DNA of 63,811 nucleotides, counting the filler, from Sluysia triapertura (lineage: Eukaryota), in NCBI GenBank assembly GCA_046118255.1. It is 5 parts of 5 records of this genome, joined end to end, with 100 filler letters (N's around TTAATTAATTAA, not from the genome) between each part and the next. Parts side by side here need not be neighbours in the genome. Positions count along the whole stretch, not along the records: positions 1 to 12,162 come from JBJNIA010133511.1; 4 more parts are not named here. One strand, given 5' to 3'. The first letter of the stretch is position 1, and each line of letters begins with the position of its first letter. The notes under the pieces are model-generated. The model did not search any database, was not told the origin of the DNA, and saw nothing but the letters and a program-made list of their open reading frames with translations. The position numbers and the translations under genes are program-made. Positions 4,775 through 46,030 of the stretch are shown here, piece after piece.

Positions 4775-5045
4775 CTGTATTGTTGGTGTTGATATGAAAT
4801 TTATTGTAAAATTTATTATAAAAGTTATTATTTGTTAATCATATTATATAACAATAATGACTATAATTATTATATATAGTTTAATACGATTTGAATTGTA
4901 ATAATAATAGGTGTAGCTCGTGATAATTATGTGCGATGATTATGTTTGTTTTTTGAATGAGTTTAGTAGTTTGTTTAATAATCTGTGTACATGTGAAATG
5001 TTTTTATGTGATGAAGTGTGACGAATTTTGTGTGATTTCCCTACA
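4775..5045 (-). repeat. Dispersed repeat (possible LTR 5' end, TGTAGGGAAATCAC on - strand); second copy ~27455-27664
   Basis: Both copies share ttatgtttgttttt(t)gaatgagt(t/c)tagtagtttg and end in gtgatttcc(c)taca. Confidence 0.65.
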
Positions 5046-5210
5046 ATTATCTTTATTTAGCATTGTACATTAAATAGGAACATAAATTTTATTTAATTAA
5101 TGTCATAATAATTCATAAAATTATTTAATTAATATCATAATAATTCATAAAATTTTATTTAAGTATATCTTTATTTTCTTCTATTTTATTTTTCATTCAT
5201 ATTTTAGATA

Positions 5211-5744
5211 ATGTACTACATCAAATGTTCAATTTGTCAAAAGTCAATTCACAAACATTATGTAAAGACATCTTCATGCATTCATAAATTCCATTTTAAA
5301 TGCATTATAAATCTTTTTCATTTTACTTTAACAAAGCATATGAATTGTCCATTATGTAGAACAATAGTAAAGGAAATGCAGGTATTTTATAAGGGAAAAT
5401 TCCGTCACTCATATGTGCTTGAAAATATTTCATTAAATAGTAATATAGAAAATATTCAAATACAAGAAATAGAAATTATTAAACCCAGCTATTATAAGCA
5501 ATTTAATAATAAACAGGAAATAAGCATACCTAAACTAAATTTTCCTCCTGGACGGACACGTTCGCAAAAACACAACCGTCGCAGGAGAAAATTAAGACGT
5601 TTCTATAAAAAGATAGGATCATATAAAAACATAATCTATTCCTCAAAAAGAAATGTACTTAATATCTCATTTTCATTTTCATTTTTTCTTTTTATGCTTC
5701 CTAAAATCCATAGGTTAATTAATAATCAAATAAATGTAATATAA
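5211..5744 (+). CDS. RING-finger (C3H2C3-like) protein with Arg/Lys-rich motif, repeat-associated, probably internally deleted
   Basis: CSIC...CIHKFHFKC...CPLC followed by TRSQKHNRRRRKLRRFYK; intronless; paralog at 29901-30487. Confidence 0.8.
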   Translation: MYYIKCSICQKSIHKHYVKTSSCIHKFHFKCIINLFHFTLTKHMNCPLCRTIVKEMQVFYKGKFRHSYVLENISLNSNIENIQIQEIEIIKPSYYKQFNNKQEISIPKLNFPPGRTRSQKHNRRRRKLRRFYKKIGSYKNIIYSSKRNVLNISFSFSFFLFMLPKIHRLINNQINVI

Positions 5745-5964
5745 CAAGCTAAACAAACTAACGATTAAAATATCTAACTTTGTATTTACTTTTCCTTACC
5801 AAACATGTTCTTTCATTCAGATTTCTTCAACCACTCTTCCACACGCATACATCACAAACAATATTCCTTCTTTTTACAATGGCATAGATCGTTTTTGTGG
5901 TAAAAATGATACCCCTTATACATTTTTAAAATCAAACCTAACACCAAACATTTTAAAAAGTGAA

Positions 5965-6680
5965 TTGGACCAAAATTTTATCACACACTTATTTCATATT
6001 CAACAGATACAATCTCGTTTAATTATAAATACCTTGCAGGGATACCCTAAAGATAGCGGTCATGTGTTTATTGCCGCGGCTAGGGGTTCTCTCAAAATAT
6101 CATTATTTGTAAACAAAGTTCCTCTACATTTACGAATACAAGGCTATTCGTCCTTAGTGATAACAAACTTAACATCAAATTGCGATGTAAACATTGAAGC
6201 GGAAGAACTGCCCACCACCTTCGCTGTTCTTTTTTTTGAACGTCGATAAACCTTTAGATATAACTAAACACCCTTTATTATACGCTGAAGACAAGGATAA
6301 TCTCTATAAGTGGGAAGAAAGAATAACATTTACCCATACCCCACATATATCCATGTTAGACAAAAACAAACTTGTCTTCGTAGCAGCACAACTGGCACTA
6401 AATTTTAAGGAGAATTACCAGCCAGTAAGAGTTTGTTTAATGCCGTATCACAAACTCTCCCATTCGGATGAATTACTAAGACCGCGTATAAGAATTAGGA
6501 ACTTTCTAGCGGCAAGCATGGATTAAGGGAGGATGATCTTATCAACGCAAAATACATAGTTGATATTCGCCAATATTGGCTTACATTATTATATGATAAA
6601 ATATTAGTCGCATTCTTCCCCGACAAAATTATTAATACATTTAAAATTCAATATGGCTCACATGCACAAATTTAGTATCG
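5965..6680 (+). pseudogene. Frameshifted ORF of unknown family downstream of the RING ORF
   Basis: Overlapping ORFs 5965-6249 and 6194-6526 join by a frameshift in a T run; GC higher than background. Confidence 0.45.
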
Positions 6681-7933: not shown

Positions 7934-8162
7934 GTTCGCACTCATGTACAATTAGCAGTAGTTTAAATATGAAAAAATAAGAAAGGTTTTTTAATACAAC
8001 AGAAGAGAAACTCAATAAATAGTCATGAAAGCAAGTAAGATTGCTGAAGTATTCGAATGCAGTTTCAGCTAAAATTGAAAGTTGGATAATTTAAGAAATG
8101 TTTATTTTTTGACCTTAAAATATTCGGTAAAGAAATTAATTAATTTTAAATCAGAATAACAA

Positions 8163-8257
8163 AATATCGATCCAGGTGAAAGTTTTGAAGGATTAAAAAC
8201 AATAACCGAATAACCGAATATCGATCCAGATGAAAGTTTTGAAGGATTAAAAACAAT
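8163..8257 (+). repeat. Tandem duplication of ~41 bp
   Basis: aatatcgatccag(g/a)tgaaagttttgaaggattaaaaacaat twice. Confidence 0.9.
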
Positions 8258-8569
8258 TTACTTAATTTTCAGATATTTTATAGAAGAAACGTTTTGAATT
8301 TTTTCATTTTTTAGATAATTCACATTAAATGCCTAATATGAGTTTTATTTGTTCAAAATATATCATTTTACTGTATAATTTGTGGCCTATCAACTGAACT
8401 TCAGAATACTAAATTATTAGCATTGTGGATATTTTTAATAGATTATCTAAAATAATAAATCGTTTAAATGTTAAAAAGATTGTACCTTTTTAAAAAAATT
8501 TTAGTCTTTATGTGATTTAAAGTATTGGAATTAAAAAATAAATAATCAACTGGATTGATATGATTAAAA

Positions 8570-9300
8570 TTAAAGATAGTTCATGCAAAGATTTTTACAG
8601 ATGATACTTCGAGTAAAATTGGCAGATTTTCAAATTAGCAAATTTACATAAGCAAATTAGTCGACAAAAACGGGAACCTCTCACGGTTTGTGTCAGATTT
8701 TAATCGTAGTTCATTGCCTCTAAAACTTTGTGCCAAAATACCTGTATTTGAAGTGCCATTTAAAGATAAAAAATCTGATAATTCTACTCTCCCAAAAGAA
8801 GTTAGTGTAAAGTCATTTTACAATTCAAATGATCGCATGACTTCTGAAAATAAAGCTACTTCTTGACTAGCAAGAGGTCAAGCGGCTATTATAAGGTATT
8901 TAAAGAAGAGATAGAAAAAAGAGGAGAAAAATGCATGGGAGAGAACTAAACCTATTGAATTGTTTATAACCTGCCAATATATGATGGACTAGTGATTTTA
9001 AGTTGATTGACAAATGTAGTGAATATTCAAATTCGACATATTACAACACGTGATTCTTCTCGTTTGCTAGCAACTTTTACGAAAGTTGAAGAATTTGAAT
9101 CTAGAGATATGAAATTTTTTAAAATAGAATCGTATATATTTAAAATAAGTAGTGTCAAAGACAATGATATACTTGTTTTAAACGTAAATGATAATAAACT
9201 TTTATATGAATTTGAAATATCAAAAGACAGACATCCTTACATTTCGGGTATGACCGAAAGTGGATTGAATTTCAATCAAATTTAGAACAGTTAGAATATC
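8570..9300 (+). pseudogene. Decayed ORF of unknown family
   Basis: Long frame with sparse stops (..SKLVDKNGNLSRFVSDFNRSSLPLKLCAKIPVFEVPF..), then ORF 9007-9285. Confidence 0.4.
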
Positions 9301-11859
9301 CTTTTGGATATTTTGGTTTTGATTATACTCGAAACTGCACTTTTGAAATTAAAGAAACAGTCGTAATAAAAATGATTTCTCATAGTTTGTCTTCTATACA
9401 TTATCTATTTGATAATGTAGTATCTATTCATTATTAATTAATGTTAAAATTATGCGACAGAGATACTTCATTACTTCTGTATAATTTTGAAATTTTTAAA
9501 GAAAGCAAACTTATCAACCAATTGAGCAAATTGACAATGCTCGGTGAAGCTATTCAGAAATTTTAATTTTCTTAAAAGTATTGGTAGATCTAATAATCAT
9601 TTATGTATTATAATAATTTCTAATGCTAATAACGATTTTGAAGTTCGTTAAATGTTAATAAATTTTAAAGCCTATTATGTACATCACCGATCTTTAAAAG
9701 AGATACTCTTACGTTTTCAAAATCGTACATTTTTATTATAAAAATTTTGTGATTTTGAACAATTAGACCGAAACGATTAATATTTTAATGTTTCGAGTTA
9801 TCCGGATATATTGGCTAGATTGATATAATTTGTGATCGCATATGTTTCCTTGGAACACTATTATAAGCATTTTATTTGTGTTTTGGGCCATGAATGTAGT
9901 AAAACTTATTCTTGATATTTTATTTTAATAGACAAAAAATGAAAATTATAAAGATGTATGATTAGTATTTAATTATATAATTAATAATGAAATTCAATTT
10001 CAACGTAAAGTTTTAAGATTCTTTTAATCAATAAAAAACTAACTTAAACATTAACAGCCCAACTTTCCTTCCCCATCTCTTCCTCTCCTGATTGTTCCAG
10101 TTCTTCGTCTTCTGTCCTTCAACCAACAAACAGCTCTCCAGCAGCACCAGATCCTCTTTCCAGCGACGATATCCAGATAGCTTATCCTGGCCAGTTCAAC
10201 AGGTACTACAACAGGTAGCAGTTATGGGTAGTACAAGTTACGTGATAGTTTATGCATGGTTGATTTGGAAGAGCTTCGTAGAACTGTAGTCAAATAAGGA
10301 TTTAAAGCAATCATACTGACGAAGACTGTCTTGCAGTGTGTTAATAAAATGATTAATAAAAGAGAATCTTAAATATTGACTCCATGTATAGTTTTATAAC
10401 ATTTATGTGCACAATGAAAACAGTATCGCTCAGATGGAGTATGCAGAAGAATAATACAGGATTGACGAGATATTGTGTATATATGTATATGTTAAGTCTC
10501 GTTAACAAATAGAGACTTATTTGTTTATGGGTACACATCTACTTTTATTTGCACTTGAATTTATTTTCATCATTATTAAAAGAAATATTTATAATAAAAT
10601 TAAGTTCTTGAACATAAAATAAAATTAACTTTTGGTAAAAAAAATTAATTTATTACATTTTTTTAAATTAGCATAAAGCGCAAAGTTATTATTGTTGGGT
10701 TGAACTATCCTAAAAAAATAAAAAACAAAACTACTCAAACATTTATAAGACTGAATAAAAACAGTAATAACAACTAGCAATCGATGTAACCTTCGAGCTT
10801 ATATAGTCTAAGTTGATGCGCACTGGGTAACTTTATGTTCTTACTTCGTTTAAGCATTGATCCTTTGTTTCATTAATGTTTTCGTCACGATGCATTCAAG
10901 ATCGATGTGAATTTGAAAACACTGTTCTACTAGCTCAGCTATCTTATATCTTTATCATTTTAAGAACTAATGGGAATTAGGTAATATTGCTCATTTATTT
11001 TCTTTATGTTTAGTGACAGAATATATAAAATTGTCTTGTCAATTGATCTAATTTACTAATTTTAACATAATTGGAAATAATGATAATCTGGTATCATAGC
11101 TCTTGCATTCCTCCACTAATTTCTATTTCGATGCTTTGACAAAGTTCGTATTCTTTATGATCATTTATTTATACTTTCATTAAGTAGCTCTGTATTTCAT
11201 TTCTCTGACATAGTTTATATCCTTCGTTCATTAGTTTATCATTTAATTCATCGTGGAGTAGCTCTTTTATTTCATTGCTTTGACTTAATTCATCATCTTT
11301 TCAGTACGCAGACATCTTGCATCTACTTAGGCCCTTCACTAAAATTTTGACCATCTTTCTTAAAACCAATTCTTATTAACACTTAAATTTTTAAGTTCTT
11401 TATTTTTTTCTATTGTTATTCTAAATTATTTTTAAGTCTAGTTTTTAATTGTTTTCCTAATTTTAATGTTATTGCCAATTTTTTGTGTACTCCTTTTTTT
11501 TATTTCAGTTATTTTTATTTATGAATCACACCGATTTTTAACTGCACACACAAATTGTCTACACCAATATCTTTCTAGCGAATATTTTTATCATTTTATT
11601 GGCTTTTATTTTTAAATGATAACCATCTGTTTACAAATTTATTTTCGTTTGCATCACATATATTGGCATTAAGGAGCCAATTCACATTTGATTGGGTTTC
11701 GAGATTAATTACTTAGTGATTAATTACTTCTTTGTCAGTCGTATTGGCTACTTAATTATGAGATAGATAATTATTACTATTATTATTTCATAAATACCAT
11801 ATAACAATATATATGTTGGGATTGCCCAACTGTAGATACATAGAATTATTAGATGAAAG

Positions 11860-12162
11860 AAAAAACGGATACAAAGTGATGGATTGAACATGGATTCCTT
11901 GTTCGCATGTTCCATCTATCATTACGTTTCCAGCGGTTCTTATATTATAAATTATCTTTTCATTATTTCCAATTCTTAATTTATCTCCCTTAGTTAAACT
12001 TATATAGCCTGTTTCGAATGCATCTCTACACTGTTTAGGCAATATCTTAAATGGTTTAGGTACATTAGATAATTCTATTATTGACGAATGGCTATGGTGA
12101 CCGCAATACCAAATTGCCACTGATCGTTTTACCATGCATTCTCTTATTAGAGTTGTTATTAA
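11860..12162 (-). pseudogene. env: N-terminal fragment of a chuvirus-type envelope glycoprotein (retroelement env), cut by the gap
   Basis: LIRECMVKRSVAIWYCGHHSHSS...KQCRDAFETG...AGNVMIDGTC matches the recalled C-x9-CGxxSH...C...GxC pattern of chuvirus-related glycoproteins. Confidence 0.7.
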
Positions 12163-12262
12163 NNNNNNNNNNNNNNNNNNNNNNNNNNNNNNNNNNNNNN
12201 NNNNNNTTAATTAATTAANNNNNNNNNNNNNNNNNNNNNNNNNNNNNNNNNNNNNNNNNNNN
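12163..12262. other. Assembly linker (N44-TTAATTAATTAA-N44), contig junction 1
   Basis: 100 bp of N with a central six-frame stop linker; identical at four sites. Confidence 0.98.
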
Positions 12263-15200: not shown

Positions 15201-16573
15201 AACGTAATCAATAATTATCGTACCTTTATAAATAATTATCGTAACTTTTATAAATAATTTTTCATTGTATTTGAAAATGACTAATCATTGTTATAATCTT
15301 CAGACATAAGAAGTAATTATCTTAATTATACTATAACTAAAACATTAAAAATTAGTTTATTCAATGTGATTATTTATTTTAAGAAACGTACATGAATTAT
15401 AAGCTTAAGAAACACTTTTATTCAAGTGTAAAAGACCAGGAGAAACATTCTAAAATGCGATTTAAATATGGGAACAAGATAGAAAATGTTTACAGACTTC
15501 CATGACACTTGTGAAATTTTAATACACGAATTTTTGTCCCAAGAATTTTTTTCACTTTTTCACATTTTACATCAAATTAAGATCAAACAAACTTAAAAGG
15601 AAAAATTTCCTTAGTATTTTGTAATTTCTGAAAAATTAACAAGTATAATGAAAAAATGTTATTTTTCTTATTCTCTTATTTTTCACTTTGATTCATTAAA
15701 ATACAACAATACGAAATACTAAAGATAACTGCAACAATTAAGAAACAAGTACACAAAAGCGCTTAAAATATTTCATTCATCATCTCTTATTTTTAAATAC
15801 TCTAATTATTTGCCAATTTTCCGATAACTGGTTGTAGATTTTTGAAACAACAATTTATAACCTATCACTTATCTTAATATCCTGCATGTTGTGTATAAAT
15901 TGTTATAACTTAAAGACATTCAAAACTATTGTGATTCTATTTTCTATTCTTGGTTTTTTAAATAAAATTACTTGTCAAAAATTTCTTACTAAACTGCAAC
16001 TTAATCGGAGGTAAAAACAAAAATATATCTGTGTATCATATTGATAAATTGATTTATCGAAGATTTAATTATGTCCACAGTTACTCGAAATTTAGCAAGT
16101 TATTTGATAAAGGTTGTAATGGGCATTTATTACCTTAACCAGTTAATTTTATAAAATTTATAACTTGATTTTTAGGATAAAAAATAATTAATAAAGTTGT
16201 TTGTGAATTCATAATGAATATTCTTAATACTAAATTTTATTTAAATATATTTCCTAATAATTAAATATCATTTAAACCTTCCATAGTAACAAATAATATT
16301 TAAAGATAGCTCTTATAATTTATAAAGCAAAATACTGTTAATGTGATCTAAAAGTCTTGATTATAATCTAAAAGTATATAATGAAATAAATAAAGGAAAC
16401 TGATTTAAAATGATAAATCTTATTAATAGCTTAAAAATTTCATATTGTTTACAAATTTAAATGATGTGAAAGCTTAACAAAAGCATTTATTTATTGCTGT
16501 AAATATGTAAAGCTTAGAAAAAGCATTTTAAAATTAAAAACTTCAAGATTATTTATTTATAAAACTATTTAAC

Positions 16574-17353
16574 CTTGCATCCTTCGCAAGCCATAACACG
16601 ATAATGGAATCCTGAAGCGTTATGTTTACAAACAACACATAAATGTGGTCCAGTTGTTGGATCCATGTAACTCGGTATAAACGGATGTCTTGCTAATGCT
16701 TTTCCATGCTTTCCTTTCCTTTGAATAATAGAAGAACTTGAATTTGAATTATTCGTGTCTTGATTAATGGATCCTGTTGACTGACGCTTTCGCGATACAC
16801 CGATAGTATTCGTTTGATTTAAATTTTTCGAATTATTTCTCCCAGCTCGCCCTCTTCAAACAACAGAAACACCGGTTAATTCTTTAGTGTCATTCATTAG
16901 ACAAAAATTCTGAGACATCTGCAAACTCTCTGTACTATATAATTCCGAATTTTCATTTAATTGCAAATAATTATTATTGACTGTATTTGTGCTATGATTT
17001 CCCTGAGTAATAAGCATTGATGATAATGGAGTTTGTTCCTGAGCTGTAGAATTAAATGAAAATTTTGTATTTCCAGATTCAGATGAAGCGATACTTCCAT
17101 CACCGGAGGAGACACATTGAATATAATCGACAGTTGGTGTAAAGCGTGGATAAATATCAGTGGAGTTGCTAAAACTAGCTGAGGTAGGAGCACTTTGAGA
17201 ACTGGATAAACCACCACTTTTAAAATCCGTATTCAAATCAACATTAATATTTGATGTATTGGCACTATGGGGATTACTTATATTTAAATTAAAATTCGTA
17301 TCAATATAATACGGTCCGTTGTGATTGTTCAATGAAGTTTTGTCTCCATTCAT
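16574..17353 (-). CDS. TR: Exon of a thyroid hormone receptor-like nuclear receptor (NR1A): A/B domain and first zinc finger; one in-frame TGA at 16856-16858
   Basis: Frame continues past the TGA to [38 protein letters not shown], followed by a GT donor at the phase-0 intron position known for TR/RAR genes. Confidence 0.88.
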
Positions 17354-19399
17354 TGTACAAAATTGGATAATTTAATTCCTTGTAAATCATGAATAAAATG
17401 AAATGCACCGGTTAATATAAACTAAACTCATTAGTAAAATAATAAACACAAAAAATATTTTTAAAAAATAACTCAATAAGAATTTTATTTTGATTATTTG
17501 CATATGATTTTAAATTTTCATTCACATTAAAACATTTACTGAAATCCAATCAATGTACTGTATACTTCACCTCTTAAACAGCCAATTACATTTGAATTTT
17601 TAAGCTAACTATTCATTATGTAATAAAAGAGAGAGAAAAATCTACACAACACAGTTCTTATATTCATAAACGTGATTGTATGTGTGGTAAAATGACATTT
17701 TGTAGCTTTTGCTATGATGAGTAACCTTGATTGTGTGTTTATTTTTACATATTTATGCACACTGTTACAAATGCATTGTAACAATTGATTGATTGAGATT
17801 TACTATGTTTATTAGAAAGTAAAAAATAATAAATATTTTACTTAATATATTAATCACTATATTCATTTTAAAATATCGCAATGACAATTTTAAATAAATA
17901 TTATTTAAACAATTTTTAAATTTTCTATAAATAAGAATAATTTCAAATGTTTTTAAAGGACAATAAATATCAAATTTGAAGATTTAAATTAATCAGTTTA
18001 CAAAAGTATGAAAATGCGAAGAGATTATTAATATTTTATTTTTTGAGATAATTATCTGTTTAAAATTTTTTACTTCAGTTATATGGAAAAGACAAATAAC
18101 TTAATAATAATAATATTAATTTATATTGCGCTAATATCTAAAAAAGGTAAGTACTCAAAAGAGCTTAAACTAAATCATTCACAGTAATTTTTCTGAAACA
18201 GAAATTACTTTGACATTTTCTTAAATATTTCATAATCTTCCAGTAATTTGACATTTTATGGTAGCTGGTTGTATATTTTTGAAACATAAACACTATATAA
18301 CTTATCACCTAGCTTATTGTTACTGTGGATTCTGTATAAATTATTATGTCTCAATGAAATATTCCTTTTCCAAATTTTTTATTATTCAAGACTTCTGTAA
18401 TATAAACATGATTTTGAATTATATTCTTGCTTTCATAGGCAACCAATGTTATTCCTTAAGAAAAAGTGTTACATGAGATTTCTTCCCACTTAGAAAATTA
18501 GTCATGCCTTTTGATTAATTATTAATTGTAATTTTTTCACTTTTCTATATGAAATTGAGTGAAATATATCATTGTTAAAATCTATGTTATTAGTTATCAA
18601 TAAATGAACAATTTGTTTGATATTTTATACAACTGATATTTACACTTTTTAACAATACATTTAATATTTTTTTCCATATTCATTTTTGAATCCATATAAG
18701 AGTTTAAATTTCGTACTTTTAATTTCGCATCTAGTGTCTTACCAGGTACAATTAATTTTATTTCGTTTATTTGGGCATTGTTATTATTGCCAGTATTTTC
18801 TTATACTTTTGCAAATTTTTATAATTGTTGGATCGCCAGGATCGCTAACCGATGAAATATTTTCAATTATTGATTGTTGAAAATGATAGTGTTCAAAATT
18901 ACATTATTTATTTTAACAATATTTTGTTAATTTTATTTATCATATTTATTCACACTGATACAATTTTATTTATTATTTTATTATTAACAATTTCATTTTA
19001 TTATTAACAATTATTAAATATTAACAAATATAGTTAATTATTAACAAATTAAATTAATAAATATTATAAACCAAAATAAATTTCAATTATAAGAAGAAAA
19101 TTTAAAAAATATTTATTTAAATAAATCAATTATTAAGATTTGTTTAACTAATATCACGTAGGCAAATATGGGGAATAAAAAAGACATAAATACATTAGAA
19201 ATTTAGCTAATTTACACAAGAACAACAACTGCGGCAACAAAAATTAATAAGTACGGCGTAACATTTTTAAAGAAAATAATATTCGTCAGCAAAAAGATAT
19301 TCCTTTTCAATCCATGCAGAAGTAATATTCTTTTTAAGTTTAAATTAAACCCTAATTGTAATAAAATAGGGTATTTAAAATCACTACGTAAAATCATTA

Positions 19400-19825: not shown

Positions 19826-20309
19826 GCTAACCTTCAGAAATATTTTGCTAGTAAGGTTACTTTTAGGTTACTCATCAGCTTAGTTGTTATTACTCGAGTT
19901 GAGAAATAATTAACAATATTACATGTATTTTACGATCAATAAATGTACATACCTTATTGTTAATAATAATAATAATAATCTGCTATTAGATTTGATGTAT
20001 TGGAGTAAAATTACATTTGCACTATTAACTCAATATACATAGCAGGCAGACATATACAAGAAATTAGAACAAAATTTTAGTAAAATATATTAAAAATCGA
20101 ATTGGAAGAATTTTAAATAAGACGACTCGATTGATTCAAAGAAAGAATAAATTTTGGAATTTATTATTACAGAAAATATTAATTGTCAACGTAATCAGTA
20201 ACTGTAACATCGAGCTGTGGAAAATACTAAGATTGATATAAATAAAGTAAGCGATACTTATTGATCTTGGTTTAAGGTTAATAAAATATATTTTATCTAA
20301 CAATACATT

Positions 20310-21022
20310 AAATTAGAAACATATTTAGAACCGGTAACCAGAGTAACTATCCAAATAATATAATGCAACCAAAATTAATGCAATGTTCTAATGTCATGGC
20401 TCCGGAATATAGAATAGATGATAATTTGTGGATAGCACTACCACACAGTGAGCCAAGTGAAAACTCCAGAAATTATATGATTGACTGAATTAAAAGGAAA
20501 ATTAAAATTCTTAGCTACAAAAAATATACCTAATTCCGGTATTTATACAAATAATGATATTCAAGCGGTTTGGCGGGAAATATTATTAACTGAAATAGTA
20601 GATAAAGCAACAGTAGAGAAAAACGGACAAGTGAATTATGAATAACTATTGGGACTCGATCACTTGAAAAGAGCCGCACAAGACACGCTGAAGCATATAT
20701 GGGGAAAATTTTTAATATTAGGACAAGCGTCTTCAGGATTAATATGAATTTACATAATATTTAAGTAAGTGCACTAATAATATCTCAGGCATTTTCAGTA
20801 ATTGGAATTTATAAAATATCAGGATTTACATGGAGACTAATAATCGGATGTTTCCCATTTTTAGCAAAATATCTATTGCATCACCACACCAACGCACAAA
20901 TAAATACACTGAGAAAGGAAAGGCATCAAACAGAAGAGAGACAAAACAATGAAAATGAGGAAATTATAGAAAACCAGAAACTTTTTGAAGATCAAACAAT
21001 TAACGAAATTCAGAAGAAATGA
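20310..21022 (+). pseudogene. env: C-terminal part of a chuvirus-type envelope glycoprotein (env), decayed
   Basis: Manual translation: YLEPVTRV..MQCSNVMAPEYRIDDNLW..NSGIYTNNDI..LKHIWGKFLILGQASSGLI*IYIIFK..IYKISGFTWRLIIGCFPFLAKYLLH; ectodomain end and hydrophobic segments in the order recalled for this family. Confidence 0.75.
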
Positions 21023-22846
21023 ATTTATCCCATCACTCCAATATCACCGCCACACGTAATGTACATGATCTGTGCAAACAATAATTACAATGGTTCAAAA
21101 AGACCAATGGTAAATATAAGAATAAATGGAAGAATGGTCTTAGCATTAATAGATACTGGAGCCGTGGCTTCTTTGATTAATGAAAGTTTCTTAACTAAAG
21201 ACGAATTAAAAAGCCTTGCCTACCACACTTCTCATCTATCAGGAGTTACAGGAGATGAAATTAATATAGTTGGTGTAATGAAAGCTATTTGTGAAGTAGG
21301 ACAAAATGAATTAGAAATTAAGTTACGAGTTATGTAAAAATGTCCTGAAGAAATGATAATGTGAATGGACATATTATCTCAATTAAAAGGAATCACCTTA
21401 GATTTCGATCAAGTAAGACTGATGGATAGTATATCAAGAAGAGTTATTGGTGATGATGATGTGTACATAGATGAACCACTTTGGTTATTAAAAAGAAGTG
21501 AATATATAATGCCAGCTATTAACAGGCAGTATTATGTTTATTGCATCAGAATTTAATCAAGAAAAGTTAGACATAGGAATAGCAAGTGCAGTATGCAATA
21601 ATTGTGAAGGAAGAATACCTGTTCGTATTATAAATTATACAAATGATATCAAATGGCTTTATACCGGTACTAAGTTAGGAAGAATTATAAGTATACAATA
21701 CCTGCACATATTAATATGATAATGGAATCCAAAAATAAGTTGGAAAATAAAACTGAGAATAATATAAAATTACAACGCGAAATACAAGAGGATTACAATG
21801 AAATCGAAATCACTAATAAAAACACTAACAAATAAACAAATAGATCAGCTATACGATGTTATTTATCCGAATAAATACCATTAATAGATAAAGTAATTCG
21901 AAAAGCCATAGAGAATACCCATATGTAATCAAAAAGAGATGCAAGATGAAATAGTGGAGGATAAGGCCAAATTTCTCTCCATTTTCATCTCCTGTTTTAC
22001 TATTCAAAAAGGATGGCACAATGAGATTCTGTTTAGATTTCATGGAATTAAATAAAATAACATGAAAATATGAAATGTCAGATATGCGACATATTTTACA
22101 ACTCTAGATCTTCAAAGTGGTTACTGGTAGATAGAGATTGCCGAGAAAGATAAACACAAAACTGCATTTACTTGTGGTGATGAATTGAATGAATGCGAAA
22201 AAATGCCTTTTGGATTGACTAGTGCATCTACGACTTTCCAGCGGTGCATGGATTTCGTATTATCTGGCTGTAAAACTGTTATAGTATGTATTGACGACAT
22301 AATAATATTCTCTAAAGATTTTGACACGCATGTAAAGGATATTGATAATATTTTAAATAGACTGGAGATAGCTAGATTAAAAATCAAACCTACCAAATGT
22401 GTCTGGGCTGAAGAGAAAGTCGAATTTCTAGGACATATAGTGTCGAAAGAGGGAATAAAACCCAATCCGAGAAATATTGAAGTGGTTAAATTTCCACAGC
22501 CAGACTACCTAAAAAAGATAGAAAGCTTTTTGGGTTTAACTAATTACAAACTAACTATATAAGATTTGTTAAGTATTTCGTTAAAATAGCACAATCACTC
22601 AGAAAACTGACAAAGAAAGATGTTGAATTTAGATGGACAGATGAACAAACAAAAGCCTTCAAAGAATTAAAAGAACGGCTAACTACAACACTCATATTAA
22701 TATTTCCAGACGTTAACAAACCATTCATACTCACTACGGATGCTAGCAATTATGCTATCGGAGCAATTCTGGGACAAAAGGATAAGAATAACTTAGAAGC
22801 GGTAATTGCATACACTAGTCAACGATTAAACGAAGCCGAAATGAAA
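21023..22846 (+). mobile_element. pol: Ty3/Gypsy pol pseudogene: aspartic protease, RT and 5' RNase H
   Basis: ALIDTGA; [19 protein letters not shown]; LDLQSGYW; KTAF..MPFGL; VCIDDIII; FLGHIVS; FLGLTNY; TTDASNYAIGAILGQ; multiple stops and frameshifts. Confidence 0.95.
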
Positions 22847-23499
22847 GGGAGTGTTTAGCAATATTATATTTTGTTTTATATTATTCAGTTGAAGTATGTT
22901 AAAAAAAATTATGTCTTTTTAAATAATTTATTAACAAAATTAATTTAAATCTATCAAAATCTATTATCCAATAACGAAAGTTATAACGATTGATATATTT
23001 ATTAAATAACATTTTATAAAATTTTAATTTCTTTATAAATCGTTGTAATTTTCCTAGTTTTTCTAAAGATGCCAGTGAATCTTGCACAATTGATCTAGAT
23101 AATATTCAAGATGTGTGCAGTTGCCATAACGTATTACATTGTAAAATGATGCTTTTCAATATGGGTACCTTTTAATATATCTGATTCTTCTTTTGAAATC
23201 AGAGGTAAATTTGAATCCATTTTGCATCTTAAATAACCATAGTATAACGAGTACAAAAACTTCATTCATAATTCATAAAATACTTTTAAACAATTTTATA
23301 TCAAACTGGTAAATAAAAATTTTAATTGGTTTCTATTTTAATTGATTTCTATTTTAAATTCTAATTTAAATTCAATTGTTGTGCCAATTTTTATGAGTCT
23401 GATTATTTTACTTAAAAATAGACTGTTATGATTGACGAATTGTTGCATTGTACTAGTTATACTATTTATACACATCTTTGAAACAAAACTTTACACTAC

Positions 23500-24504
23500 A
23501 TGCGTTTGTATGTCTGATAATTTAAAAGTATAGATACTTCATTATATTGGGTTGTGAATGTATAATTTTTTTTGTTTACTTTTCAACTACAAATTGTTTT
23601 GTGTTATTACGTATGATTAGGCATCCAATGAGAGAACTGTAAATATAACAAAAATAGCAATGATTGGATGTCCAATCAAAGTATGGTGTGATAAAGCAAC
23701 ATGTGAATGTATACCTGTCACCATAAAGTTTACAAAATTCATCAATTAAAATGGTGACAGGCAAATCTATTTTAAATATAGTTAAATGGTTACCATACAT
23801 GTAACTAAATGATAAAATAATGATAATGGTATTTATAATAAAATGAAATGTTAATTATAATAATAATAAAATTAAATTTAATAATAAAATATCCTAATAG
23901 GGTAATAATAACGTTTGTAATACTAATAATAATGAAAGATAAAAATAATACATGAAATTCTTTTATTGTCTTTTAATTCCTGCATAATCTTTTTAATATG
24001 CCAGAAATAAAAATGATAATGATAATAATAGTGACAATTGATAGTTATACTAAAATACATAAATCTTTCTTATAAATCAAATTCCTTTCTTTCTAATAAA
24101 ATTTTTTTAACTAGCATTCTTTTAATTATGTCCGATTACTATTTTTTTAAAAGCCAAAGAGGAAGAAAAAGAATAATAACACGCACTTCTAGGTATTAGA
24201 AGAAATTCCGTTTTGATTAAAATGTTTAAAATGATCTTGAAGTGTGAATTTACTGTTTTTCAACGATATTAATGATTGGGTGTGGAAAAATTGTGAACTT
24301 GAATTGTTTTGGATTAAGTAAAATTTGTACGTTTGATGATTTTCTATGTTGAATAAGATTTTAATGTAATGAACTTTGAATTTAAAAAGATCAAAGTATT
24401 TAAAATTTTAAAGAATCATAAAATTTGAATTATTAAATATTCTGAAGAATGGTTTTATGTGTAATGTTAGACTAAAATGTTAAGATATTAGGTTGGCCAC
24501 CACA
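23500..24504 (-). mobile_element. Family A repeat (putative LTR), copy 2, inserted in the Gypsy RNase H
   Basis: Starts TGTGGTGGCCAACC at 24504; AAT tract; hairpin 23714-23761; palindrome TGATTGGATGTCCAATCA at 23661-23678. Confidence 0.7.
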
Positions 24505-24780
24505 ATATATGCAGACTACAAACCAGTGATGTATCTGTATAATCATAGGGACGAAGTTAGTAGATTAAATAGATAGTTTAATAAACTATCAGAGTTCGAT
24601 GTAGAAGTTATTTACAAACCAGGTTCGCAAAATAACGGCACTGATTGTATCTCATGATTGACAAATGCAGACTATAAAGAAAATATTAACTTGATACAAA
24701 TTATGTCAATATCGGGTAAGGTTCAAGATACTAAAGAAATTATCAAACACTAAAGGGAAGATAAGGATAATCATCCACTA
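24505..24780 (+). mobile_element. pol: Resumed Gypsy RNase H C-terminus
   Basis: IYADYKPVMYL..SRLNR*FNKLSEFDVEVIYKPGSQNNGTDCIS*L matches the TDHKPL..RW..L.EFD..I.YKPG..N..AD.LSR consensus. Confidence 0.85.
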
Positions 24781-26493
24781 ATCAATCCCAATCATTTTGT
24801 CGGAGCGCTAATAACAAATCACAAATATTACGATGATTGTTTTGATGATAATACAGATTAGGAAGATTTGAAGTGTATCTACCAGAAATCTCAAGTGACC
24901 AATTCCTCTTATGAGATTCATCGATCTAATAATTTTTATCTTTTACTAAAGGACTCGATCAACAGATATTCAAGAATCACTTAACAATATTGTCGTAGCG
25001 TTATGTTATGAAGTTTATAAAGTTTGCAAAGCAACCACATAAAATTTACAAGCTACTTTCAACCTTGCATCTTCTTAAACTAAAACTAATTTTTTGAATA
25101 TTGAATTTATTTACAAATTAATAAAATATGCTTAGCAAAAGAAATTATTATTTGTATTATTTTAAAAATTATTTTTGTTTCAAAAAATGTACTCTTTTAT
25201 TATTTTGTTTTTAAAGAAATGCTTAAATTATTGTGGCTTGCATTATTTTGTATTACATGTCATCATTATGATGAAACTTCGAATTCAACGCATTATTAAT
25301 ACAAATTTGATGTTAATTTTCAGAAATACTGTTCAATTATGCTGAAGTAATAACAAGAAATTTAAAAACAAAATGACAAATGTAGTTGTACAAAAAATAC
25401 ATCAATGCATTTTAAAACTGTAAAACAACATGCATTTAACGTATATGTCAATTCATCAGTGTACCAGTTATAATTTGATATTCAGCTAATGAATCAATAT
25501 CCATATACGATTATGCATCATTAAAGATGCACAAAACGATAAAAATCGTACGATAAATTCATTTAATGGCTTAATTAGTTTGGACAATAGTAATACGAAT
25601 GCTACTTTATGCGAAAATAACATCCGTAAACATTTCTTAATAAATCAACCGCATTTAATAAAAGATTATATTATATTATAAACGATGTTTATGTAATTCT
25701 TAATAAATTAAATAAAATATTTTAATAGTTCTTGTATTGTTGATATATTTTATTTTAATTTATCTATCGTACATACTGATCAATGTTTGCCAAATGGAAC
25801 TCCAAATTAATTATTATACCTATATGAATAACAGTAAATAACAATAGATAATCAGAATATGACAAAATGTAATCAAGATTGAAAATGCAATAAAAACAAT
25901 CGTTACTAAAACATTACTAACAAAATTGCAAACATTTTTTGTAAATACAGCGATACAACCAACAAAATCAAAATACCTTATGGCATAATAAATTGAATTC
26001 CTGTGTTGTACAAATTTGTGTAATCAAAATAATGATAGTGTTAATATCCGAGTTGTCATTAAAAATTATGAAAAAAAATCACTAAAAGCTTTATATGGTA
26101 TTTTCCATTGAGATAATTTCAATTCTCTCCTGTAGTAAATTTTAATTATATGTCCAGTTTCTTTTTACAGTTGAAATCATATTCTATTCATAAGTTGTTG
26201 TGTTATGTTTATTATTTAACAGAATGTACTCTACGAAAATTGAAAAGGCCTTATAAAAATTACAAAATTTATCATTATATTTAAAATTTTTATTAATAAT
26301 TGTATTGTTCAGCTCATTCATAAATCTCTAACACAGGCAATTTCAAACATCCAATACATATTACACTAATATATCATAACTTAAATAGATTATAATATTT
26401 TTTAATTCGAATAATATATAATATACTTAAATTACAATAATTTATTATATAATATTACTTTTAATTCGCTGTGATCACCTTTTCCAACTCCAT

Positions 26494-27454: not shown

Positions 27455-27664
27455 TGATATTGTTGATGTTAACATGAAAGTTATTATGTGACAATCGTGT
27501 CAATCATATTAAACGACGATAATCCTAATAATTATTATATATTTTAATACGACTGGAATTATAATAACAATAGCTATAGTTCATGATAACTATGTACAAT
27601 AGTTATGTTTGTTTTTGAATGAGTCTAGTAGTTTGCTTAATGTGTAAGTAAGTGATTTCCTACA
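27455..27664 (-). repeat. Second copy of the 4775-5045 repeat
   Basis: Visible alignment and same terminus gtgatttcctaca. Confidence 0.65.
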
Positions 27665-29089
27665 ATATTAATCAATAATTCAATCATTTGTTAATTAATA
27701 ATATTTTGATACTTCTCTTATTGAGCCCCAAATAACTATTAAAACTAAGTTAAATGAAATAATTTTCAATAAATTACAAATTGATGGTGATATTTTTAAA
27801 GTACATTTTAATTGATATTTATGGCTACAGGGAGATGTAAATCGATCTACTTCAGTAATAATTTGAATCGTTTATTCTTAGGCGTAATGTGGGATCTCAG
27901 TTTTCATTTAGGAGTTTAAATGTGAAAAATGATGATTCTGTTAGTGTGCAATTGATTAAAGTTTTATCAAATCAGCTTTACCAATTATTTCACATATTAA
28001 GAAGTTGTTATCATAATTGGTTTGGCCAAGTTTAATTATAAAAATAATATTAATTTTTTTGTTCAACGGCAAATTAGGAAGATGAATTTCATCACAAAAG
28101 GAAAAAAAATTAGACATAAAAATTTTATATGTACAACACTTAAAAGAAGAATAAAGAGGATCTCATAAAAAGCAAATGAATTTATATTTCTTATTTTGAT
28201 TTGATGGTTAGTATTGTGATTTTATTATGATTAATTCGAAGATTATAATGTTTATATTTGGTAATTATTGAATTAACATTATCAATTACTCTACATTTAA
28301 TTTTATCGTTAGATCTGTTATTAAATTTCTTACAAGTTTTCAAATATTTATAATTAAAAAATTGGTGCTTAAGGCACGGATCAGTTTCATTATTAAACGA
28401 AGATAAAGCATCAACAAAATTCTACACGGAGTTGCTATTATAATGTAGATATCTAAAATACTAAGTTGCGTTAGTTGATCTATCATATTTATACCATTAG
28501 CTGAACGCATTAATCTGACTTTTAATCCTTTGCTCATTCTTATTAACTGAAAGTACTTTCGAATTGCTAATTCAACAGTAGGAATCAAAATCTTTACACA
28601 TATTGATCGTGGAATACATATTTTTGAATGACTGGAATACCATAAGGAAAAATTTTTTGCTGTCGGTTTTAGATAAACTCATGCTTACAGTGAAGTAATA
28701 GTGGTATAACATGTTGTTGAGCTTGAACCGATTTAGAATATTTTAATTTAGAAACATCTAGAATTGTAGACAATTTAACTGCCATTCTTATCATTATTGA
28801 ACTAAATTGTTAAGAGTGAATTTCGCTTTAGAAAAATTTTGATTTTTATTGTCAGGTTATAATTAAAACATTAATATTGGCACAGAAACCCAAAATTCGG
28901 ATCAAATTGTAATAATGAAACTTCGTCTATTTTTTATGCACCTTCTTTCTATCATTACATATTAATAATCATATTAATAATCAGTTATCTTCGTTGTAGA
29001 CAAAAATTATATTAAAATCGTATTCTAACTTTAATCTCTTGTATTTCAAATAAATATGTGTGCCAACTCTTTCACTTTTTATTATTTTC

Positions 29090-30032
29090 TCTGTGAATGG
29101 ACGTCTAATACGATGTGAGCTAGTATGTAAATAATTATGATTAACTGGGCGTCCAATCAGGCCACAGTCTGGAAATGATTTCGATTAGTATCTGTCATCG
29201 GTAGACAGCAAATGTGAAATGTTGATTTAGGTTTAATCGATCTGTCTACTGATGACAGAAAATAAATTAAAATTAGTTGTTAAGTGATAAAATGATTATC
29301 ATAATAATTATAATAAAGTAATAACAATAGTAAAAGTAATGCTACAAGAATTAAATACATGAACCTTTTACCTTTACCACACAATCTTTCTGTTATTTTA
29401 TATTTATTTCTTAACATATAATTGGAATACTTTAAATGGTTGATGAAATGTAGATCTGCTGTTAAGGGTGAATATATGGTTTACAGGATGGCTTTAATGT
29501 TTTCTTTTGTGATGTGCATGGTTAAATATTAAAGAATTGTGAACCTGAAGTATTTTGAATTTCTTTTACGACGTATAATGTAATTCTTGAGTTATGAGAT
29601 TGTGAATAAAATGTTATGGTTAACTTTTATTGTACGTTAATGAATTTGAATGAAGAAGTTATTTTAATGTTGTAACTTTATAAATAAGAAATGTTTGAGA
29701 TGAACTTGACTTGTAGATTAATGTTTTTGAACATAATTTTGGTTCTGATGTTATGAATTATAGGTTAAAATGTTTTAAGTAAAATTTAATGTGTGTTAAT
29801 GGTCTGGACTTGGATGAAATTTTGATGTTATACAGTATGAGATAGGAATGTTTGAGAAATCTGTACTATTGGGAGTAAAGGAGATGAAATATGAAAAGAT
29901 TTAGATGTAGGAGAATTTAAAATGATATGTAATTTTGTGTTTAACATGTTTAATGGTAAAATGTTGTGGAGAGTGATTTTGTTGTGTCAATAAAAAATTA
30001 ATTTTGTTAAAAGTTATAGGTTGGCCACCATA
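29090..30032 (-). mobile_element. Family A repeat (putative 3' LTR), copy 3
   Basis: Starts TATGGTGGCCAACC at 30032; AAT tract; 18-bp-stem hairpin 29191-29259; CCAAT palindrome variant 29142-29160. Confidence 0.65.
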
Positions 30033-30487
30033 GTTGGCTCTAAGCTTGTCGTTTAACTTATAAAAGTGTTTTAATTGCCTACGGCGTCTGTTTCGCTTTT
30101 GTGATTTAGTTAAGCCTGGCAGTAAGATAGGAGCGCATCTTTGATTATTTGTGTTCAATGAAGTTATTCGTATTTTTATCGATGGCTGTGTGATATCTAC
30201 AGAGCAATTTCGATTTAATGTATTGGATGTAGGACTTTGTGATCGTATGGTGTCAGTGATGTTCGTGACTTCGAAATTTTAAAATGTCAAAATTTCTTTC
30301 TATAATAAATATCGCAACTCTTAACTGTGTGTGCGACACATAGGACAAGAAGGGAAAGGCGTAAGAGAAGAGTCAAAAAGAAAGAAAAGGCAGTGGAAAT
30401 GAAAAGGATGTGTACATGGTTTGGTGACAGCTCGATATTTTTTGAGTGTTCGAGGCAAACTGAAAAACGTGTAGTGGTAGATGTCAT
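29901..30487 (-). pseudogene. Frameshifted RING-finger/Arg-rich ORF, paralog of 5211-5744
   Basis: Across frameshifts: FSVCLE..TKPCTHPFHFHCLFFLF..CPMCRT..DIYYRKKF, then PGLTKSQKRNRRRRQLKHFYK. Confidence 0.8.
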
Positions 30488-40129: not shown

Positions 40130-40960
40130 TTAAATGAATGCAGCCATCCATGCATCTTTTAGAACTTTTTTGAAAATGTGCGTGATACACGCATAAGTTT
40201 TTGATTGTTAGTGTTGTAGATTTTTTAGGGAATTTGTATCTCAATAAACAAGATTTAGCCTGTTGTTGTAATCGGTTATGATTCCATTGAAGGGTTTTTT
40301 CATTGTTTTCCTTGTTGGTGAGTTCTCTTTTGACTTTGTAAATAATATTTTGGTTAAATCCGCAACTTGTTTATTTAAATTTTGAACTTGTAACAGAAGA
40401 TTTTGTGTTTCTGTGTTTGTTGTTGTTGTGGTGGGTTTTTGATTATTGGAAGAAGAATCATTCATTGAATAGAAGGGTTGTTGGTGATTCTTGTTCCATA
40501 CTGCGATGATGTTATCGGCGATCTTAGGCAGTTCATCGATCTTACTATATTGGGTTTCAACGAGTGTGCCTTGAACTGTGAGAGGCATAGCATCGAGGAA
40601 TAATCTTTTTAACACATCGCGATTCTCATCGATGTTACAACCGAAAGGTGCTAAATCTGTTTTTATTTTAGCCAAACATTCAGAAGGTTTGAATTTTAAA
40701 GTAGTCTTGGAAGACTTTTTCAGAATTATGGCGGTATTGCTGTATGATGATTTATCTGAGTTCGTCATACAGAGATTTTGAAGCAATACATGTTTGAATT
40801 TTTGGGCTTATTTTACTTAGAAGTGCTTGCAGTAGCAATGTTAGGGTATGGTTAAACTTTGTGGTTTGGTGTTTAATCGCACTGGTTTGAACATGGCTTC
40901 AACAACCAAAACCAAGAAAAATTGAGACGACGGAGTATTGATATTTGTTAATTGATCTTG
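40130..40960 (-). mobile_element. gag: Ty3/Gypsy gag pseudogene
   Basis: VEAMF/..IKHQTTKFNHTL..YDELR; KPSECL..LKRLFLDAMPLTVQGTL..IDELPKIADNI; Cys/His knuckle LCVYHAHF/..KRCMDGC across a frameshift. Confidence 0.8.
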
Positions 40961-43375
40961 ATCATTACGTGATGGAATTTCAGGTTCGTCGTGAGTACCG
41001 CCGTGTAATTGGTGATTTATTGAAATTATTGCCCCCAAGCTAAATCTTAGATGGGGACGTAATGGTTGCGCCTGGTACGTAAACAATGCCTTAGAATGTT
41101 TGGTTAATTTATGAAGTATATTGGTGAGATTGGAATTTTTAATTTTAAGGCGCAGGTTTAGATTACATATTATGCATTTTATTTTTATGGGTATAATTTG
41201 ATTTGTTTGGGTTTTCTTGTTGATATATGTGTTCACTATGCACATGCAGTTCGAATTCCATGGTGGAGTGAATTACTGTTCCTGGTAGAATTTCTTTTTG
41301 TCTCAGGATTGACCGGGGTGTTAATGCATTTTTAAGATAACTGTTATAATTTGGTTGATTATTTGAAAATGTAGGTCCTGTTTTATTAGATTTATTGATT
41401 TGGATAGTATGAAGTTGATTATTGTAGTCTATTTTTGACTGTTTGTTTAGAATAACTGGTTGTTTTCGATTTTCAACGTTCTTTATATTGATTGCTTTAT
41501 TCGGCAGTCGTTTTGACATATCTTTAGACATATTCAATTGTTTAGAATCGGAATTGATAATCCTTTGGTTTGAATTGGCCATAATGGCACGTTTAAAAAT
41601 TGGGGACCTTCTTTAAAAATTTTTGCGAAGGCTTTATTACTATTAGTTTTACACAAATTTTAGTTTACTCTCGTGGGTAGATTGTAATGGATTAGACCCT
41701 TTTGTTATATTATTTTCGCCTTGACGTACATTTGTAGAGCGGTTCAAATATGTGGGTGGTGTGGTAGCAAACCCGTAACCCAAAATTTTATTAGACTTAT
41801 GGACTGCGGTTGTCCAGATAAAAGGTGTTGTCTTTGACTGTTCGGAGTATTTGTGTATTAAAGGTTTTTGAATTTTATTTTCGTGAAAAGGTTTATTATG
41901 TGACGTTGTGTCATTTGTTAACTGCTTAGTGATATTATTGTATGTGTGAATATTTGTCGTTTTTACAAAGTTTTGTGGCAATTTGTTATTATAAGATAGG
42001 TTGATGAGGTGATTCTGTGTTTGGTATTTGTAAAGCGATTTATTATTTATTTTGGGTGGTAAAAATTGTATTGTGTTATCTTTTAATTGTTTAAGATTGT
42101 AATTATGTGAGTATGTATCATTGTTTTTATTTTTTGGAATATTTTGTGAAAGTTTAATGCCATTAGATGAATTGTTTTGTATTTTGTATCTGTAGGGTAG
42201 TTTGTTATTTGTTTTGAATGATACAGGTTGTAATACTTTATATTTGTGGTGTCACAAACACATACAACGATCTTGTTATACACAAACCTACAAGCGATTC
42301 ACAAACAAAACATTTTGATACTTTTCATACATTTTAAAACATTCACATACGGTCAATATATATTTGAAATCTCACAGTAAATTATACGCAAATTCCACCA
42401 ACAATTTCTATTACTAACACATCGTCATAAGCCAAATTCAGCTCACTGATTATTAATTTGCCATTTTTAACATAAATACAAAGCATAAAACTACGAACCA
42501 TAAAATTTTACAGCAAAATTAATGTAATCACCCTAAAATCATAATAACCAAATACGTTTTCTTTTTTGATTTAATATGATCTAATACTTTTTTTACGGTA
42601 TCGTTCCCATATCCACAACACCACTATGGGTCACATTGTTGCTGTATTACTGTGATTATCATTTTAATTTTTTTGTTGTACTATATATTTGTCATGCAGC
42701 ACGAAACATTGTAGTATTTCTGAAAGATCCACGGAACCTATGAAAATAAATGTTTTCAATATTTGGATATGACATAAAAACTAAAATAATATTTAAATAA
42801 AATAACCAAAACAAGATTTAAATATAAAGTTTAAAAGAAATTTCATAAATTTAATTTTGTTTTAATATTAAAATTTAAATGTAATTTGTAAAACTAAATT
42901 CGTATTCTTTAAAACTAAAAGTATTGTCAATTAGAGTCCACATAAAGCGCTTCAGAAGAAATATTTTTATGCTTACCAAAAGTTCACATGAACATTTAAG
43001 AAAAATATAAATGTTACAAAGTAGAGCCAAAAATAAGTCACACAAAAACGTCAATGCACGCGTTGTAGACTTTTAACAAGTAAATAATTTAGATAATGTA
43101 AATGAAGTTACTTTTAATTTAAATATTCAAAAAAACGGGACTTTGTGCGATGATGATTTTCCAAATAAATTGCCTTTAAGTTATGCTACACTAAAGGCGA
43201 AACTGAAGGAATGGAAGGCGGCTAAACTAGTTCAAAAAATCAAAATTCTCACTACAGTTTTACTCGAGCATGTATTGCTAATCTTTTTGTTCATGTTTAA
43301 GTCAAAATGCCGTGGATTTACAAGAATTTTACTTTGCTTACGGAAATGCAATCACTTCTTGCGATCAAGGTTTTA

Positions 43376-44680: not shown

Positions 44681-44802
44681 CTCACCTAAAAAATAAAAAT
44701 TAAAAACGAATTAGAAATAAAAAAATTAAACATGGATTTTAAAATTAAACATTTCAATCTTTTCTGTAATTTCTCAAATATACCTCCGAAAATTGATACA
44801 GA

Positions 44803-46030
44803 ATGAATTATATTAAATCAAGAGCTCATCCTATAACTAGTTTACAAAAAAATGATTTTGTAGATTCTATTACTCTCGATAAATCTGATCCAAAATTATC
44901 TAACATTCGAAATAATGAAGAATTAACTTTACTAACAGATTTGACTCCGAGGTATTGCTTATTTTGTCGTGGATCCGGAAACATTGAAACGTTATCAACA
45001 AGTATTGTAAGTAACGGTGATAGTAGTGACTATTCTGATTATCATCTTATAAGTGCATTTTGGAAACATGACCCATTTTCAGATAAAGTAACAGTATGGT
45101 TAAACGAGAACCAAGAATTTACACGAATTGTACAAAATGCAAGTCGCAGTCGGGTTGAAAGTTGGAAGTCGTATCATAATAAAATACCAAATTCAAGTTT
45201 TAGAATGATATTACCATTAGATACACAACTTAAGCAAGGTGGAAGTTCAATTATTAACATTTTTACGACTAGTACTATTGGTAGATTATGCTCAGAAAGA
45301 CAATCAGCTAGATTTTGATCAAATACACCAGTCTGTAAAACAAGTAGTCAAGAATTCAATATCCTAGTGTTTAAACACATGATTTCGACGAATAGTGATG
45401 GTTTCGTTACAATTTTATTATCATAAGCTTCGGATTTAAATAATTCTTCAACAACAAGACGTACTAAAAGACGTCGAAGTATATATAAAAATAATTTAGA
45501 TGAACATGAATTTATGCAATATTTAAGAAAAGATTTATGTGATGATTTGGATGTCACAACACTTGGCTTCAAAATTCTTCAAAATGTTTGTTAGTCTACT
45601 ACTAGAAGCAGATCGCTGTTCATTATTCTTGATAGAAGATCGGGTAACTCATCAATCTATGTTTGTTAGTAAACCGTTTGATGCAACCACATATAGTATT
45701 TTGGAAGGGTTTGTAGAGCATTGTCATGACAATACTACTCGAATTCCACTTAGTCAAAGTATAATGGGTATGTGGCTAAACCATTTAAACATGTAAATAT
45801 TGAAGATGTATGTAAAGACAAACGATCAAATCTAGTAATTGATAAATTGACCAGTAATGTTACAAAGTGTGTCCTATGCATGACTCTAAAAGATAATACT
45901 GTTATCGTAAGCGGAATAGCACAAGCAGCTAATAAAGTCGACCAACATCAACATTCAATTAGTCAAAGAGATGTTAAAGTTTTTCGAAGTTATCTAAACT
46001 TTAGTACAATTAGTATTAAAAAAAGGCACA
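44803..46030 (+). pseudogene. Intronless fragment of a GAF-domain cyclic nucleotide phosphodiesterase (PDE5/6/11 group): N-terminus and GAF-A only
   Basis: VTVWLNENQEF; LDEHEFMQYLRKDLCDDLDVTTLGFKILQNV/SLLLEADRCSLFL..SKPFD..VNIEDVCKDKR..IDKLT..VLCMTLKD..GIAQAANK..DVKVFRSYLNF; stops and frameshifts. Confidence 0.85.

Follow-up and report, generated by a model that had tools for sequence, protein, structure and literature searches.

The first contig of a 63,811-nucleotide stretch of the Sluysia triapertura genome (hereafter the window) ends inside a reading frame resembling a viral envelope (env) glycoprotein, which raises the question of what this frame encodes and whether it arrived by a single viral insertion or was amplified by a mobile element. 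The window consists of five AT-rich contigs (~26% GC) joined by artificial linkers of 100 bases (Table 1). The first linker, whose central 12 bases carry stops in all frames, adjoins the frame, and so the frame lies on a different contig from a second env piece at 20.3 kb, as an earlier note on this DNA had proposed. The source is an animal, since the window contains a nuclear-receptor zinc-finger (zf-C4) exon; the receptor piece was too short to be assigned to a particular receptor by PDB matches. Upstream of this exon, in the same frame and with one TGA between (16856–16858), is a 171-codon open frame, and the sequence ahead of the finger has what we take to be a resemblance to invertebrate thyroid-hormone receptors.

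Table 1. Coordinates of the features discussed, numbered along the whole window.
Feature	Position	Strand	Evidence or description
Read-through part of the open frame, not env	11788–11893	−	No homology by tblastn or with the relatives' profile
High-copy DNA adjoining the env piece	11857–11893		Contig ends in run X1
Imperfect inverted repeat across the junction	11867–11931		Arms 11867–11892 and 11906–11931; 20/26 complementary
N-terminal env ectodomain piece, ~89 codons, no stop	11894–12162	−	PF24664 profile and tblastn
YCGHHSHSS motif	12082–12108	−	P0125 model puts the equivalent residues at a long beta-hairpin's tip (strands 194–212 and 218–222)
Artificial contig linkers	12163–12262, 26494–26593, 39131–39230, 52953–53052
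Structure of the first linker	12163–12262		N44-TTAATTAATTAA-N44
Nuclear-receptor zinc-finger exon	16568–17371	−	zf-C4, E 1e-7; ends at a GT donor
C-terminal env piece (ectodomain end and membrane anchor region), decayed	20304–20920	+	PF24664, E 5.8e-12, profile 408–564
Retroviral-type aspartic protease	21023–21337	+	RVP, E 1.2e-7
Reverse transcriptase, broken	21961–22547	+	RVT_1, E 1.1e-17
Connection/RNase H, first part	22556–22933	+	RT_RNaseH_2, E 8.7e-24
RNase H, remainder	24502–24783	+	Follows ~1.6 kb of intervening DNA

Read on the minus strand from the end of contig 1 (12162) as far as 11788, the frame has 124 codons without a stop. Residues 6–88 of its N-terminal piece aligned to positions 72–155 of the 653-position PF24664 profile (Monjiviricetes_fusion; E 5.3e-12, 44.9 bits against a curated cut-off of 27). 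Homology to env stopped at about 11894: tblastn HSPs of full-length relatives ended between 11887 and 11905, and the match to a profile built from nine relatives ended at 11884. Thus, while the earlier note had assigned 11860–12162 to env, the assignment held by homology for 11894–12162, and 11860–11893 proved to be read-through, as did the remainder of the open frame, ~35 codons altogether. The three motifs it had listed were all found (CGHHSHSS at residues 20–27, CRDAFETG at 45–52 and DGTC at 83–86), but with four cysteines at residues 9, 20, 45 and 86 the first spacing is C-x10-C and not C-x9-C. In an alignment of 20 sequences C20 and C45 were invariant and G21, G78 and C86 nearly so. No start codon, signal or membrane anchor was present in 11894–12162, and env is cut at both ends, since the contig end lies upstream and the junction downstream.

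An exhaustive phmmer search with the piece gave 23 matches, 22 of which were PF24664 proteins, the other (P0145) being a noise match to EGF repeats; a word-seeded search found no match among longer proteins, and the ESM Atlas gave no usable match. Judged from its sequence, the piece is N-terminal ectodomain of a class III (herpes gB-like or chuvirus-like) fusion glycoprotein and not a chance frame. The absence of stops up to the contig end, which the earlier note had stressed, is real but counts for little. When the contig was shuffled 100 times, 52 of the shuffles contained an open frame of at least 89 codons, so length alone is uninformative; given how densely the second copy is lesioned, a run of 89 intact codons would be expected with P ~0.11–0.24, the true value being higher because stops in that copy were over-counted. 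For this reason the lack of a stop codon within env lends little to the idea of a cellular or domesticated gene, or of a chance frame, which we regard as extremely unlikely: the frame is cut at residue 89, its sequencing depth is hundreds-fold (see below) and, the EGF noise match apart, no cellular protein was found among the matches. The copy itself is an inert, dead fragment.

The predicted structure of the relative P0125 (mean pLDDT 67), which shares 37% identity with the piece over 81 residues, pointed to the same class of protein. Foldseek matched the model to herpesvirus gB with E 3.7e-14 (VIA Z 9.7 over 385 residues, rmsd 10.6), and to chuvirus-type glycoproteins in BFVD with E 2.2e-39, the top hit being Tacheng Tick Virus 4 G (P0142). 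A hairpin at the CGHHSHSS region was present in the predicted models, and its tip, as modelled, presumably corresponds to fusion loop 1 of class III fusogens. The model of the piece itself was poor (pLDDT 62); it matched nothing at Z ≥ 2 in one fold search and nothing at E 0.001 in another, where the top, non-significant match was P0142 (E 0.54). When the env alignment was searched against PDB sequences, 0 matches were returned. Residues 9–70 of P0125, ahead of env, showed a weak Bcl-2-like match below the cut-off (E 1e-3) and were helical in the model.

The piece at 20.3–20.9 kb belongs to the same glycoprotein family, as the earlier note had supposed: both pieces match PF24664 and the same full-length proteins. 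It carries stops and frame switches, and the protease follows it directly, in the frame of the env tail and with no gag between. Env directly ahead of protease, reverse transcriptase (RT) and RNase H, as in gag–env–pol errantiviruses, was found both in this copy (20.3–24.8 kb) and in the relatives. Neither an integrase nor, using a two-sequence profile, a gag was found within the window. The RNase H of this copy is split by the ~1.6 kb of DNA at 22934–24501.

On the profile of the relatives, which has 637 positions, the N-terminal piece covers 69–162 and the C-terminal piece 423–635. The two are therefore separate parts of env, N then C, and complement each other as claimed; the stretch between them (163–422, ~260 env codons) is absent from the window. 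Because they cover non-overlapping parts, no alignment between them is possible, and two such loci alone are no proof of multiple copies. Their order on the protein, without overlap, is what would be expected if a single insertion had broken apart and left both its ends, but each is flanked in its own contig by 8–12 kb of unrelated DNA, including the nuclear-receptor exon, some 260 codons are missing, and the N-terminal piece is highly repeated in any case, which makes a single broken insertion very improbable.

The domain order of the relatives bears on the carrier. Env was followed by pol domains within one protein in 5 of the 22 PF24664 matches (P0124, P0131, P0132, P0134 and P0140): a protease came after env in P0124, P0132 and P0134, the last also having a zinc knuckle ahead of env, and protease, RT, RNase H and integrase came after it in P0131 and P0140. 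The cluster members P0147 and P0151 had the same env-then-pol layout. Along P0140, P0131, P0147 and P0151, the matches to the N-terminal piece, the C-terminal piece and then the window's protease, RT and RNase H were collinear, and so the two env fragments do occur together in full-length elements, a check that the earlier note had suggested. An independent search with the RT of the window placed P0008 (env–protease–RT–RNase H–integrase) fifth among 492 matches. The env match P0125 and the RT match P0006 were both on contigs 20,084 long, and the env match P0134 and the RT match P0009 both on contigs 21,743 long, which suggests that the members of each pair share one contig. Scanning viral contigs with P0140 and metagenomes with the RT of the window found no related locus; a scan with P0008 found two loci (L001 and L002), both distant gypsy pol without an env match.

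Several other properties of these proteins were seen. P0140 (HBK71150.1), an animal-type env–pol protein of 2627 residues, has a database record that assigns it, as a hypothetical protein, to a Flavobacteriaceae metagenome bin, a label that most likely reflects bin contamination. P0131, P0132, P0134 and P0147 (4844 residues) have two or more aspartic-protease-like domains per chain. Several relatives have a hydrophobic-ended tail after the integrase, and that of P0151 has an Ig domain.

In a quick RT tree of 61 rows, made up of P0004–P0059 among the 120 matches listed plus four env-bearing proteins, the RT of the window fell in a 15-row clade (SH-aLRT 98) that held all five rows with env in the same ORF. 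Integrase follows RNase H in the env-bearing relatives of this clade. An 89-column env tree, from which P0145 was left out, set the N-terminal piece apart on a long branch, with four chuvirus-like rows (94/89) on one side and the remaining rows (65/72) on the other; a grouping with its best errantiviral matches was neither shown nor rejected on those columns (AU p 0.44). The score ranks of the two env pieces agreed weakly (rho 0.51, p 0.13, n=10).

This placement bears on a rival origin, in which the piece has no kinship with the gypsy copy at 20.3 kb. Its source would then be the glycoprotein of an RNA virus of jingchuvirus/chuvirus type, or a BEL/Pao element resembling Anakin, and the same or some other carrier would have multiplied it. 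PF24664 is a fusion protein family of negative-strand RNA viruses, P0142 is both among the sequence matches and the top, though non-significant, fold match, the env tree leaves the piece between the chuvirus-like rows and the rest, and such captures have been published (PMC7642597, PMC10084718). However, the best pairwise scores were to gypsy env–pol polyproteins, though the lead over P0142 is modest (66.6 bits for the best, against 54.7) and one env–pol protein, P0151, scored below P0142 (32.7); with the C-terminal piece P0142 scored 38 bits against 55–84 for gypsy-linked env. No BEL/Pao-type Pfam domain was found in any of the 23 matches or in the window, though the piece itself has no pol attached. 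The earlier note would have been refuted by a match to a cellular protein or to an unrelated, for instance BEL/Pao-borne, env family, and neither turned up among these matches. The same env family stands beside a gypsy pol 8 kb away in the window, the RT of the window groups with those of the relatives of the piece, and a one-off viral insertion would show single-copy depth. Taken together, a chuvirus or BEL/Pao origin is distinctly improbable.

The copy number was estimated from run X1, the one sequencing run found to contain the stretch (77% of words); no RNA run was among those listed, which has no bearing on expression. As X1 is probably the source of the stretch, its depth is not independent evidence. 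X1 contigs were aligned at 80% likeness to 7963–12162 (4.2 kb), the span to which the depths refer. Single-copy contigs with a depth of 16.7–22 tiled 7963–11837. Summed depth, which is no copy number, was 17–362 in the 27 bins left of 11743, 22,596 in 11743–11882, and 356,045 and 329,119 in the two env bins. A total of 2236 contigs aligned, 241 of them at 99% identity or more, 487 at 95–99%, 860 at 90–95% and 648 under 90%. At five sites the mean depth per variant-bearing contig was 157–223 times that of a single copy, and dividing total depth by the largest overlap inflation (31) gave 339–927. From these contigs of one run we infer at least ~150 related copies of the N-terminal piece, and there are probably several hundred to thousands. 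Contig 1 ends ~300 bases into the repeat, presumably because the short-read assembly met a high-copy element there. A one-off viral insertion is excluded, since the depth is far above that of the single-copy contigs. The multi-copy nature of env put forward in the earlier note is therefore upheld by depth and by the spread of identities, while its argument from two loci does not carry the claim. Amplification by a mobile element, which it had also proposed, is the most likely cause, as the second piece is linked to a Ty3/gypsy pol and the relatives are env–pol proteins.

The junction at ~11894 bears on what is being amplified. The region 11780–11893 had no clear match elsewhere in the window, the best being 18 bases, and none to the env, pol, gag or tail profiles of the relatives. 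Only six of the 486 loose ends were listed; among these, 55 contigs exit leftward of 11857, the largest pile, and 20 exit rightward of 11893, and no leftward pile of env contigs was seen at 11894. The score of the inverted repeat across the junction was reached by 3 of 524 window tiles and by none of 200 shuffles, and this repeat may have templated the rearrangement. Should the lack of a pile at 11894 be real, the truncation would be common to many copies, and what is amplified would be a non-autonomous derivative.

On this reading the origin is unchanged, but most copies would be rearranged: env would already stop at ~11894, and the inverted repeat would bridge it to other sequence. In keeping with this, the biggest listed pile lies at 11857, no listed contigs exit at 11894 as intact env copies should, the inverted repeat is rare by chance, and the bin at 11743–11882 is already deep, though only ~26 of its 140 bases lie in 11857–11882. 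On the other hand, the loose ends listed are a small fraction of the total, the 20 contigs leaving rightward at 11893 put the left segment in another context too, and short contigs together with the 80% likeness filter can mask or spread loose ends. We therefore hold this reading only tentatively, as rather less probable than its absence. More doubtful still is the fuller version, a high-copy non-autonomous repeat built on a truncated gB-type env and a fold-back junction, present in hundreds or thousands of copies, amplified apart from its parent gag–env–pol element and possibly in a host group for which no such elements are listed.

The origin that we consider highly probable is that the N-terminal piece is a truncated env relic of a gag–env–pol Ty3/gypsy LTR retrotransposon, an HSV/gB-type errantivirus, belonging to a multi-copy family. 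Neither gag, LTR nor pol is attached to the piece within its contig, so its carrier is inferred from the relatives and the neighbouring copy. In intact relatives Gag, Env and Pol would often be read as a single long frame. The ectodomain would enter the secretory pathway by way of a hydrophobic segment preceding Env, the chain would come back to the cytosol at the membrane anchor, and the protease could then free Pol. Passage of particles from cell to cell would be made possible by a trimeric class III fusogen, and copies would spread by retrotransposition. The present copy is inert: its env breaks off after ~89 codons, where an inverted repeat spans the junction.

Other features of the window were recorded alongside. 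A RING-finger ORF (zf-RING_2, E 4.5e-6) followed by two further ORFs occupies 5208–6523 (+); a basic motif of the RING ORF recurs at 29904–30278 (−) with 15/21 residues identical, and the region together with this recurrence looks like a repeated element. ORF 5740–6246 gave no usable match in the ESM Atlas. The segments 4833–4979 and 27498–27641 match at 82%. Inverted repeat copies that are 69–76% alike, with ORFs of 100–150 codons and no Pfam match, lie at 45794–46507 and 60239–60995, and further inverted repeat pairs of 71–76% identity, between and within contigs, lie at 55218–55620/58204–58632 and 2113–2695/54666–55181. A weak match to the GAF region of the cGMP phosphodiesterase PDE5 (E 0.014) at 45527–45793 (+) is probably a host exon; searches with ORF 44797–45315 found no match. 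Four overlapping ORFs of 143–200 codons with raised GC and no significant Pfam match were found at 40244–42251 (−), one of which, 40244–40807, may resemble a gypsy gag. A DEAD-box helicase-like piece at 28343–28678 (−) was below the cut-off (E 4e-4).

Set against known systems, the N-terminal piece is largely ordinary and most likely comes from an already described group of envelope-carrying retrotransposons. At ~35–39% identity to its nearest database relatives, it represents a distinct lineage. Animal genomes in which a gB-type envelope retroelement has been heavily amplified thereby gain a further example, which is also a data point on the age and spread of gB-type fusogens; it would carry more weight if it were true that the amplified unit is a truncated-env derivative, or that the host belongs to a phylum not yet listed. 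The likeness to herpesvirus glycoprotein B, itself a class III fusogen, is in the fold of the relative P0125 at ~10% identity, and is structural only. Jingchuvirus and chuvirus glycoproteins belong to this Pfam family too, that of Tacheng Tick Virus 4 sharing 31% identity with the piece over 84 residues, but each is a stand-alone gene of an RNA virus and they score below gypsy-linked env. Chuvirus-type glycoproteins on BEL/Pao and gypsy elements of arthropods are reported in PMC7642597 and PMC10084718. Anakin, a mosquito BEL/Pao element with a chuvirus glycoprotein (PMC7642597), is likewise a retrotransposon amplifying this class of glycoprotein, but on a BEL/Pao backbone, whereas the window and the relatives have a Ty3/gypsy-type pol.

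The nearest systems are the GAG-ENV-POL errantiviruses, which share a gB-like env ahead of a Ty3/gypsy pol and for which the gag–env–pol order with a gB-type env has been published in flatworms, nematodes and bryozoans (Chary and Hayashi, PMC13524379). A metavirus with env ahead of pol and an RNA-virus-type glycoprotein had been reported among non-canonical endogenous retroviruses of nematodes (Sacco et al., 2022, PMID 35550022, as cited in PMC13524379). Compared with the errantiviruses of PMC13524379, the window holds broken pieces without gag, LTR, primer site or integrase. The main text of that paper makes no mention of env and pol as one reading frame, and their occurrence in a single frame in several relatives is a lesser new point beyond it. 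Among the env rows of PMC13524379 that were examined, those of Nematoda and Bryozoa lacked the motif pattern of the N-terminal piece, and the closest by eye were the Platyhelminthes_C1a rows, Schmidtea Smed_errantivirus_1–6. With the env of Smed_errantivirus_2, as given in those rows, residues 7–86 of the piece could be aligned without gaps, 30 of 80 residues being identical by hand count and all four cysteines in register. In PMC13524379 Smed_errantivirus_2 is credited with 215 intact copies, and it is thus multi-copy like the family to which the N-terminal piece belongs.
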